In this document: positions 8,783-10,106 of the stretch, in pieces
Position numbering within the stretch: position 1 is the stretch's first letter
How the letters are laid out: each line of letters begins with the position of its first letter
Virus record (IMG/VR): IMGVR_UViG_3300031949_000004
Location: 94,224-158,223 of that record
From: a virus
Length of the DNA stretch: 64,000 nucleotides
Reading direction: 5' to 3' (one strand)
Notes under the pieces: model-generated
Database searches by the model: none
What the model was told of the DNA's origin: nothing
The model's input: only the letters and a program-made list of their open reading frames with translations
Made by a program: the position numbers and the translations under genes

Positions 8783-9070
8783 ATGATGGACAACGAGTCG
8801 CTCGCCAAGGTCTTCGCCGGATACTGCCAGCAGGCCGGTATTAAGACCAACGAGTACGCCATCTCGGTGGTTCGAGCCGGGGACAGCACGGTCCATCCCG
8901 AGGGTTATGTGGTGGTGGAATTTCGCGGAAAAACCTTGACCTTCGAGATGCTCGAAAAAGCCAGCGAGCTGTTCGGCACCCGAAAGATCGACCTGGGCTG
9001 TGATCACGGTTGTGCGAGTGATCCATGCCATGAAACCAACATCACGTTCTGGGGAGCTAGGGGGCTATGA
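8783..9070 (+). CDS. hypothetical protein
   Basis: The start MMDNESL follows the upstream stop. 95 aa. Confidence 0.4.
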   Translation: MMDNESLAKVFAGYCQQAGIKTNEYAISVVRAGDSTVHPEGYVVVEFRGKTLTFEMLEKASELFGTRKIDLGCDHGCASDPCHETNITFWGARGL

Positions 9071-9516
9071 ACGCTTTCCCCAGGCCTCCAAAGGAAATTT
9101 GTCTCGCGGTTCGCGTGCGCAACAACCGATTGCGCGAACGACGGCTTGCCGCCGGACTGACCATCAAGCAGCTCGCCAAGGCGGCCAAGGTTCACTTCGG
9201 TGGCTACACGGTCCTTGAAAACATGTATGAGAGCCCGCGCATGAAAAACGGGCAGTGGCGCAAGATCGCCAGGCGCATGGCCCGATACTACAAACTACCC
9301 ATCGAGGAGCTTTTTCCTGCGGGCGTGGAAGCCGTCAAGCATGCCACCGTCGTCCGGAAGATCGATGCTGCCGAGCTTGGACCTTTGCTGGCCAATCCCA
9401 AGGCAGACCCTTTGTTGCTGCCCGAAGGAACGAAAATACGTAGCGATTCGCTCAGAAACGAGCTTGACCGCGCCGTGGACGGCATCCCGGAGTATTTGCC
9501 GCCGGAACAACGATGA
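9067..9516 (+). CDS. HTH-domain protein (paralogue of the N-terminal domain of the next gene)
   Basis: ATGA overlap. [20 protein letters not shown]... resembles an XRE-type HTH. It aligns with residues 10-90 of 9513-10106. Confidence 0.5.
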
Positions 9517-10106
9517 AAGAGTTGCACGTCACCATACAAGCCAAGAACAACCTTCTGTTGGAGCGAAGACAAGAACTTGGTCTGAGCCAAGGAAGAATGG
9601 CCCAGCTCATCGGTACCAACTTGGACTACTACAGCGCCCTGGAGAACATGCGCCTCTCTCCCTTGACACACAAGGGAAAATGGCGAACAACCGCGCTCAA
9701 GTGTGCTGAATACTTCGATTGTTCTCCGGAGGAACTATTTCCCAAAGGCATCATTGCTGTCGATAGTTCCCGCGCCGAGCGAACCATGGATTACGACGAG
9801 CTTTCACCGCCTTCTCTTTCCGAATATGGCAAACGTCTTCTGCTACTGTCGGAACCCGAGTCTATGGTTGAGGCGAACGAGCTTGCCCAACAAATCAGAG
9901 GTTTAACGACAACCCTGACACCGCGAGAAGAGCAGGTGCTGCAACTACGGTTCGGGTTAAATGGACAAGATCTCCACACGCTGAACGAGGTCGCCGAGAT
10001 ATACAAGGTCGGCCCCGAGCGCATCAGGCAGATTGAAAGCAAAGCCTTACGGAAGCTCAGGCATCCAACACGTTCGCGGTTGTTGAAGGCATTCGTGCGA
10101 ACATGA
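9513..10106 (+). CDS. HTH domain fused to a sigma-70 region-4 domain (region 2/3 absent)
   Basis: The C-terminal 65 aa ([60 protein letters not shown]) closely resemble primary-sigma region 4.2, including the RKLRHPSRS-type motif. The N-terminal domain is HTH-like. Confidence 0.65.

Follow-up and report, generated by a model that had tools for sequence, protein, structure and literature searches.

An XRE-sigma domain 4 fusion family of uncultured phages and its possible mimicry of host primary sigma region 4

Domain architecture of the fusion protein

The window analyzed here is a 64-kb stretch of viral DNA (IMG/VR record IMGVR_UViG_3300031949_000004, positions 94,224 to 158,223) that makes up about a third of a 194-kb contig; relatives at other loci were covered to ±10 kb. 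On its plus strand, at 9513..10106, the window carries a gene for a protein of 197 amino acids (aa) plus stop in which an N-terminal helix-turn-helix (HTH) domain of the XRE/Cro-CI type is joined to a complete sigma domain 4 (sigma-4), as delimited with Pfam, NCBIfam, a family profile, AlphaFold and a PDB sequence search. The N-terminal domain (N-domain; aa 1–97, 9513..9803) comprises a strand (b1), five helices and a second strand (b2). A variable linker of low conservation follows (aa 98–112, 9804..9848; predicted local distance difference test scores, pLDDT, of 63–66) and leads into sigma-4 (aa 113–197, 9849..10103), which has helices H1–H5, including the -35 recognition helix and the C-terminal helix H5, and corresponds to residues ~529–613 of Escherichia coli sigma-70. 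The fusion protein belongs to a large, uncharacterized, phage-borne XRE-sigma4 family.

Both an HTH_3-type, five-helix XRE/Cro-CI domain and Sigma70_r4 are present in the protein. Pfam places HTH_3 at aa 16–47 (E=1.7e-8, 34.8 bits, cut-off 23) and Sigma70_r4 at aa 134–184 (E=6.4e-16, 58 bits, cut-off 24.1), and even at E≤1 returns no Sigma70_r2 or Sigma70_r3; the LuxR/GerE-type effector HTH signature (GerE, Sigma70_r4_2) is likewise absent at that threshold. Only aa 113–196 match the NCBIfam models for RpoD, SigA and RpoS, in each case to the C-terminal ~80 positions of the model. In PHROGs, the C-terminus matches phrog_351 (sigma factor) and the N-terminus matches generic XRE regulator families. 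The PDB sequence search aligned aa 130–195 with E. coli sigma-70 residues 546–611 (E=6.5e-15), from which sigma-70 numbering equals fusion protein numbering +416. The family profile matches SigA/RpoD region 4 with E values down to 4e-41, and in profile alignment of the family with primary sigma (hhalign) homology begins at aa 112, so the whole of domain 4 is present. The best NCBIfam match of the sigma-4 part is the MzaA model (94.5 bits, vs. 90.3 for RpoD, a gap too small for interpretation); MzaA is the sigma factor of the MZA anti-phage system.

The first-pass annotation of the locus, made from the sequence alone, had described a sigma region 4 without regions 2 and 3 on an XRE-like HTH scaffold, and had not recognized in it a standard phage sigma factor; the searches above agree on each of these points. 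Its domain boundaries need revision, since the N-domain spans about 97 aa rather than ~130, and the sigma-derived part is about 85 aa (H1–H5) rather than ~65. The match to primary sigma, which it called almost residue for residue, amounts to about 57–65% identity.

Lacking region 2 and any convincing region 3, the fusion protein is, by its domain content, not a sigma factor. A complete ordinary sigma factor was considered and rejected on the same results (Pfam, NCBIfam, hhalign) and because the protein is too short. When the N-domain was compared with individual sigma domains (hhalign), no signal was obtained for sigma-2 (P=0.84) or sigma-4 (P=0.21), and a weak one for sigma-3 (probability 7–8%, P=0.004). 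This similarity, which is to the sigma-3.1 HTH, is weak but specific, and the family might descend from a sigma-3/sigma-4 half. As an account of the N-domain, a diverged sigma region 3 is less likely, the XRE assignment being far better supported.

The AlphaFold model of the fusion protein, computed from a 76-sequence family alignment, has a pLDDT of 92 and a predicted template modeling score (pTM) of 0.56, which leaves the relative orientation of the two domains undefined. It contains a strand at aa 4–9, five helices within aa 13–81, a strand at aa 87–92, a low-confidence helix at aa 99–111 and the sigma-4 helices within aa 115–192.

A cotranslated paralog and evidence of selection

Immediately upstream, a sigma4-less paralog of 149 aa (9067..9516, +) consists of an XRE domain (HTH_3, E=1.5e-5 in Pfam), a linker and only the first sigma-4 helix (H1). 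The two products share 33% identity over 120 aa (BLASTP, E=3e-16); the first-pass annotation had recognized the duplicated HTH scaffold, and the duplication also takes in the linker and H1. The AlphaFold model of the paralog (pLDDT 87) shows the same N-domain, a disordered stretch and one helix at aa 126–138, the counterpart of sigma-4 H1, and the protein ends exactly where the ‘LTPREE’ motif would start. Such forms are rare in the family, being limited to this open reading frame (ORF), its ortholog (85% identical) in the relative L087, P0121 and a fragment, P0134.

The gene ahead of the paralog ends at 9070, and three successive ATGA stop/start overlaps (9067–9070, 9513–9516, 10103–10106) link four ORFs within a tight plus-strand run of small genes. 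Judging from the ATGA shared by the stop of the paralog and the start of the fusion gene, these two genes are translationally coupled. L087 has the same tandem arrangement. Relative to the L087 orthologs, the ratio of nonsynonymous to synonymous substitution rates (dN/dS) is 0.12 for the fusion gene (72% amino acid identity) and 0.16 for the paralog (85%). Both genes are real and under purifying selection, and the recurrence of the arrangement in independent assemblies shows that the locus is not an assembly chimera. The last of the coupled ORFs (10103–10195, 30 codons, with a CxxC motif) has no counterpart in L087 and may be spurious.

The phage inhibitor PP1 places a helix at the site of the first sigma-4 helix and thereby displaces sigma-4 (bioRxiv 10.64898/2025.12.17.695035). 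Since the paralog retains just this helix, it is plausible, if speculative, that the cotranslated paralog acts as a partner or antagonist of the fusion protein, e.g., in a heterodimer with a single sigma-4.

Size and distribution of the family

A search of 5.8 billion proteins yielded ~80–100 full-length relatives of the fusion protein (33–72% identity, 173–341 aa), all metagenomic and all with precomputed HTH_3 and/or Sigma70_r4 domains. With the sigma4-less ORF 9067–9516 as an unbiased N-domain probe, 789 matches at E≤1e-3 and 224 at E≤1e-10 were found among 1.84 billion cluster representatives. Based on profile coverage, 142 of the 148 best N-domain matches align across both the N-domain and sigma-4, and the N-domain is thus a specialized XRE subfamily essentially always fused to sigma-4. 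At least 499 stretches in IMG/VR encode a relative of the query, some through the sigma-4 part only; ~70 of the 80 IMG/VR loci kept are full length, and the family occurs on only about 0.02% or more of IMG/VR contigs. What the first-pass annotation presented as a singular oddity is therefore one member of a large conserved family. Its view that the DNA is of phage origin is supported by these relatives and by genes elsewhere in the window: one encodes a helicase of the Dda type (phrog_325, E=8e-100), and further PHROG matches are to a protein ‘released from the phage upon host infection’ and to an internal virion protein that includes an endolysin domain. Most window ORFs are ORFans.

The family appears to have gone undescribed. 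None of the curated Pfam, NCBIfam or PHROG models covers the XRE-sigma4 fusion, and a literature search returned no description of an XRE plus sigma-region-4 protein. GenBank phages contained no full-length or N-domain homolog, yielding only generic XRE repressors and contaminating bacterial rpoD/rpoA records, and a search for host or cellular homologs in species-representative genomes returned solely genuine rpoD region 4. For sigma-4, RpoD proteins from Myxococcota, Bdellovibrionota and Acidobacteriota score best (56–62%), which is weak evidence as to the host. The top match in BFVD, 200 aa long and from an uncultured marine virus, bears the automatic label ‘Sigma-70 region 3 domain protein’; uncultured phages also have Sigma70_r4 proteins of 94–136 aa that stand alone.

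The sole name among the relatives, ‘hypothetical / HTH cro/C1-type domain-containing protein’, comes from a metagenome-assembled genome of Candidatus Azambacteria. One family member (L005/L006, 10001–10603), on a Candidatus Azambacteria contig (candidate phyla radiation), lies at the border of a region of ~10 kb in which small ORFs without annotation are separated by long gaps; this region may be an integrated element. A long-form subfamily of ~380–450 aa (L247 17854–19188, P0137, P0148, P0233, P0235, P0268) shares a ~200-aa C-terminal extension with the motif MRLWFCDRA and no Pfam match; in these proteins the sigma-4 recognition helix is more diverged.

Conservation of N-domain and sigma-4 residues

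Residue retention was computed over 224 family members, with sigma-4 in E. coli sigma-70 numbering. In the N-domain, N12 (99%), N13 (92%), G23 (91%), P50 (93%), W57 (83%), L75 (91%), F76 (81%) and P77 (87%) are conserved, and the solvent-facing positions of the XRE recognition helix (36–39, 41, 42) are highly variable. XRE/Cro-CI regulators bind specific operators, usually as dimers; this variability is indirect evidence that the N-domain may do likewise, and the motif searches yielded no operator.

The helices H1–H5 are defined in sigma-70 residues 540–613; H1, H2 and H5 contact the beta-flap, and residues 593–603 are an activator target (PMC2988021). Toward the start of sigma-4, retention is 96% for L551, 80% for R554, 77% for E555, 80% for R562, 96% for G564, 81% for T572 and 72% for E575. 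Further on, the values are 46% for R584 (a proline in the window protein), 65% for E585, 87% for R586, 74% for R588 and 86% for Q589. Across the activator-target patch they are K593 51%, R596 72%, K597 73%, L598 82%, R599 89%, H600 70%, P601 73% and R603 69%. H5 can be aligned in ~65% of members, among which L607 is retained in 79%. The sigma-70 residues that touch the -35 element, the beta-flap and activators are largely retained in the family.

Identity of the family's sigma-4 domains to the primary-sigma consensus has a median of 52%, or 44% when the unbiased set is used; the window protein reaches 65%. Among themselves the sigma-4 domains have a median identity of 41%, and the N-domains 34%. 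These values fit continued selection for host-sigma-like properties in many lineages and relaxation in others; repeated recapture of sigma-4 from hosts is possible.

Genomic context and searches for DNA targets

Three of the contigs with relatives measure 167, 169 and 192 kb, and many others 35–70 kb. Within contigs of at least 30 kb their positions are scattered, and a location at the genome end was rejected. Recurrent neighbors, named by eye from cluster sequences, include DNA polymerase A-like, VRR-NUC-like nuclease, PD-(D/E)XK-like nuclease, SNF2-like helicase, primase-helicase-like, terminase-like and portal-like proteins. No single conserved neighbor gene goes with the family. In 36 of 59 non-redundant loci the gene starts ≤16 bp from an upstream ORF on the same strand, often with an ATGA overlap; the gene is thus operon-internal in early/replication modules, unlike a lysogeny repressor with a divergent promoter. 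At one locus, on a 167-kb phage contig, the family member is followed 2 kb downstream by an AcrVA2-like gene (an anti-CRISPR family; L002, 12606–13766), as would suit a block of early genes for host takeover.

Among the 64 window ORFs searched with Pfam and/or PHROGs, the only sigma-family matches are the region-4 matches of the fusion protein itself, and there was no match to sigma-2, gp55-like proteins or RNA polymerase beta/beta'. No sigma-2-like partner was recognized by eye among recurrent neighbors at 73 loci. A promoter scan around the fusion locus gave results at or below chance.

An alpha-CTD-like gene in the same window

About 7 kb upstream of the fusion gene, the window encodes a free-standing protein of 135 aa that resembles the C-terminal domain of the RNA polymerase alpha subunit (alpha-CTD), a gene that the first-pass annotation had overlooked. 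The gene lies at 2274..2681 (+), within ORF 2184–2681, with 2274 as the likely start; the Pfam match is to RNA_pol_A_CTD (E=3.2e-14, 52.8 bits vs. a cut-off of 23.8). Compared by direct reading with the E. coli alpha-CTD, the protein keeps E261, R265, N268, C269, G296, K297 and K298; close homologs vary at N268 and E261. An extra C-terminal domain of ~65 aa has no recognized identity. Homologs of the protein are P0272–P0276. It has no PHROG family and no homolog in GenBank cultured phages, its type was not found in the IMG/VR scans, and a literature search returned no description of a phage alpha-CTD.

XRE-sigma4 and alpha-CTD-like genes co-occur in three contig groups: the window, L247 and L186/L190/L238–L241. 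In L247, which comes from a relative of the window phage, two alpha-CTD genes stand in tandem, one with a Pfam match at E=1e-7 and the other a 71% homolog of the window copy, and ~7.5 kb downstream of them a 444-aa long-form XRE-sigma4 protein is encoded (family profile E=1e-46, Sigma70_r4 27 bits). In the unrelated lineage L186/L190/L238–L241, the gene for a near-canonical alpha-CTD protein of 132–134 aa (Pfam E=4e-20) follows the XRE-sigma4 gene 3 kb further downstream, in coupling with DNA polymerase A; the string VQRTEVELLKTPNLGK of this protein matches E. coli alpha. As the window and L247 form one lineage, the pairing is seen in two independent lineages. In a restrictive pattern scan of IMG/VR, 4 of 8 alpha-CTD loci carry a family gene within 10 kb, and those 4 represent one of five lineages. 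With few independent lineages involved, the association is suggestive.

Relation to known transcription factors

Region 4 of the primary (group 1) sigma factors RpoD and SigA is homologous to aa 113–197 of the fusion protein across all five helices, with the same -35-contact, basic-patch and H5 residues. The fusion protein differs from them in lacking regions 1.1, 2 and 3, and therefore cannot bind the beta' clamp helices or melt a -10 element. In SigO-RsoA of Bacillus subtilis, sigma functions are spread over separate polypeptides, one of which has region 4; here, by contrast, the N-terminal domain is of the XRE type, and no sigma-2 partner was found among window ORFs or recurrent neighbors. 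Some XRE/Cro-CI regulators touch sigma region 4, such as lambda cI at PRM and the C-proteins of restriction-modification systems, whereas the XRE domain studied here is covalently joined to a sigma-4 of its own instead of contacting the host's, is flanked by additional beta strands and carries an invariant NN motif.

The T4 factors AsiA with MotA, and gp33, are early phage proteins that take the -35/beta-flap position and add a new DNA address, gp33 sitting on the flap in place of sigma-4 (PMC2988021; PMC7824862). They have no sequence relation to the fusion protein, and the putative analogy is one of function only; in the fusion protein the putative flap/-35 module is a literal copy of sigma-4, joined to a DNA-address domain in one chain. 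The sigma-4 displacers gp39 and EP1/PP1, too, have no sequence similarity to it, and here again the putative analogy is functional only. The late activators RinA, ArpU and Ltr are small phage proteins built around a region-4-type HTH (cf. PMC3753634); the fusion protein matches none of these families in Pfam or PHROGs. Both these activators and the stand-alone Sigma70_r4 phage proteins are distant from primary sigma and have no XRE domain, unlike the fusion protein.

Possible modes of action

Phage control of host RNA polymerase is known from a handful of model phages, each of which uses a small protein, unrelated to sigma region 4 or the beta-flap, to bind or remodel one of these. In the present family, an obligate fusion of XRE and sigma-4 is selectively maintained in early/replication operons of many uncultured phages. 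Our preferred reading, to which we assign a probability of roughly 40%, is that the protein may be a phage-encoded transcription factor imitating host primary sigma region 4, with which it would compete, or which it would replace, at promoters chosen by the XRE domain. After early expression, sigma-4 would bind a -35-type hexamer and/or clamp the tip of the beta-flap of host RNA polymerase, and the XRE domain, with a recognition helix that varies among the phages, would give a phage-specific DNA address. At the promoters so chosen the protein would compete with or substitute for host sigma region 4. It could act as a DNA-bound occluder of -35-dependent promoters, leading to shut-off of host or early phage genes, or as a polymerase-docked surrogate that tethers polymerase to phage promoters, a one-polypeptide analog of AsiA plus MotA or of gp33. 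Displacement of sigma-4 is a recurrent phage strategy, as with AsiA (PMC2988021) and EP1 and PP1 (bioRxiv 10.64898/2025.12.17.695035).

Several observations weigh against this reading. Many members have a diverged sigma-4 recognition helix and no alignable H5, so strict mimicry of host sigma is not universal in the family. Conservation cannot separate flap binding from folding, since the conserved hydrophobic residues are also structural. The -35 hexamer TTGACA is not enriched in the window (20 found vs. 29 expected), no intergenic motif is shared, and an intergenic k-mer search gave nothing convincing. To reach the flap, a free sigma-4 would also have to outcompete the one tethered in the host sigma; in the 64 kb covered of the 194-kb contig, the analysis identified no AsiA-like helper.

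Sigma domain 4 and the alpha-CTD are the two polymerase modules through which upstream promoter DNA is read and activators are received. The presence of a free alpha-CTD-like protein suggests a broader strategy in which copies of these modules are deployed. In such ‘module mimicry’, phages would express a free host-like sigma domain 4, fused to XRE, and an alpha-CTD, fused to other small domains, and the copies would either mask host promoters or, at phage promoters, take the place of the modules that the polymerase itself carries. We offer this broader proposal more tentatively than the preferred reading; the alpha-CTD finding strengthens it as a realistic new mechanism and, if true, it would be distinct from all characterized phage anti-sigma and appropriation factors.

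The simplest alternative, which we find doubtful though the most serious of the rivals, is a phage regulator with two HTH domains, in which sigma-4 serves only as a second DNA-binding domain for phage operators, much as LuxR/GerE domains do, and neither contacts polymerase nor bears any relation to the -35 elements of the host. Each of the two domains has a DNA-binding fold, and the sizeable part of the family with a diverged recognition helix and no alignable H5, as well as the lack of TTGACA enrichment, would be expected of such a regulator. Against it stand group-1 sigma residues kept beyond the needs of a generic HTH (RHPxR, the basic 593–603 patch, H1 and H5), the closer resemblance of members to the primary-sigma consensus than to each other, and the absence of GerE or Sigma70_r4_2 signal in the window protein. 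Co-occurrence with alpha-CTD points, moreover, to polymerase mimicry.

We regard as improbable a protein decoy, as raised in the first-pass annotation, in which sigma-4 titrates region-4 binders (Rsd-/AsiA-like anti-sigmas, class II activators, sigma-dependent defense) and the alpha-CTD likewise titrates class I activators. The patch that activators and anti-sigmas target (593–603) is conserved (PMC2988021), the co-occurring alpha-CTD is the other main activator target, and the best NCBIfam match is region 4 of the defense sigma MzaA, by only 4 bits over RpoD. A decoy, however, needs neither an XRE domain with a variable recognition helix nor an obligate fusion, and conservation is highest at the base-contacting residues R586, R588 and Q589. 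With -35-contact residues kept family-wide, a variable XRE recognition helix and a location in early/replication operons, flap docking or promoter competition would fit better than a pure decoy.

A split sigma factor, in which the fusion protein supplies the sigma-4 function and a separate phage protein the sigma-2 function, on the pattern of SigO-RsoA or of T4 gp55 with gp33, seems more improbable still. The sigma-4 domain is complete, flap-binding helices included, and split sigmas, like gp33 (jumbo-phage review, PMC7824862), are well-established precedents. Nevertheless, the 64 window ORFs searched gave no match to sigma-2, gp55-like proteins or beta/beta', the neighbors at 73 loci offered no candidate, and no single neighbor gene is conserved across the family. 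The idea of a nonfunctional piece of host rpoD picked up by the phage, or of an artefact of assembly or annotation, has nothing in its favor beyond the high similarity to host sigma and is effectively refuted by purifying selection, by hundreds of diverged members with the same architecture and by the identical arrangement in independent assemblies.

Proteins in which a DNA-binding scaffold bears a literal copy of sigma domain 4 thus make up a large family, known so far almost entirely from uncultured phages. If, as in the preferred reading, the fusion protein docks on the flap or masks -35 elements, the family would represent a new and widespread takeover strategy. It would also provide ready-made tools, as portable sigma-4 modules with a programmable DNA address, and a handle on the exchangeability of sigma-4 in the holoenzyme. 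Should the proteins prove to be merely two-headed repressors, they would still be a sizeable unannotated class of phage regulators, mislabeled as sigma factors by automatic pipelines.

Other features of the window

The first gene of the window (39–1316, +) matches phrog_850 (RNA-binding protein), and the gene at the corresponding position in L246/L247 has TROVE/Ro60 and vWA_Ro60 domains. About 460 nt downstream, on the opposite strand and inside a weak plus-strand ORF, ARAGORN calls a tRNA-Arg(CCG) at 1780–1846 (-), around which Rfam finds nothing. These features may represent a Ro60 protein and a partner that resembles a Y RNA or a tRNA.

A cluster of enzymes that are not usual in phages (17456–22014 and 40179–41645) comprises a sulfotransferase (17456–18364, -), a papain-like protease match (20189–21208, -) and two DXD glycosyltransferases (21298–22014 and 40179–41645). 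A PcfJ-like protein (45051–46358, -) and a nucleotidyltransferase (60840–62171) are encoded elsewhere.

Repeats occur at several positions. At 28276–29536 a ~455-nt unit is present three times in tandem (69–75% identical), forming three paralogous small genes. ORF 49628–51490 contains two sets of in-frame repeats, three overlapping 41-nt copies at 36-nt spacing (50688–50800) and three copies at 15-nt spacing (51256–51315). A 44-nt sequence starting CATGGCATACGATCTCCT is found in four copies (29695, 30290, 62515, 63092) at apparent gene starts (MAYDLL...), which suggests a dispersed paralogous gene family with members 32 kb apart.

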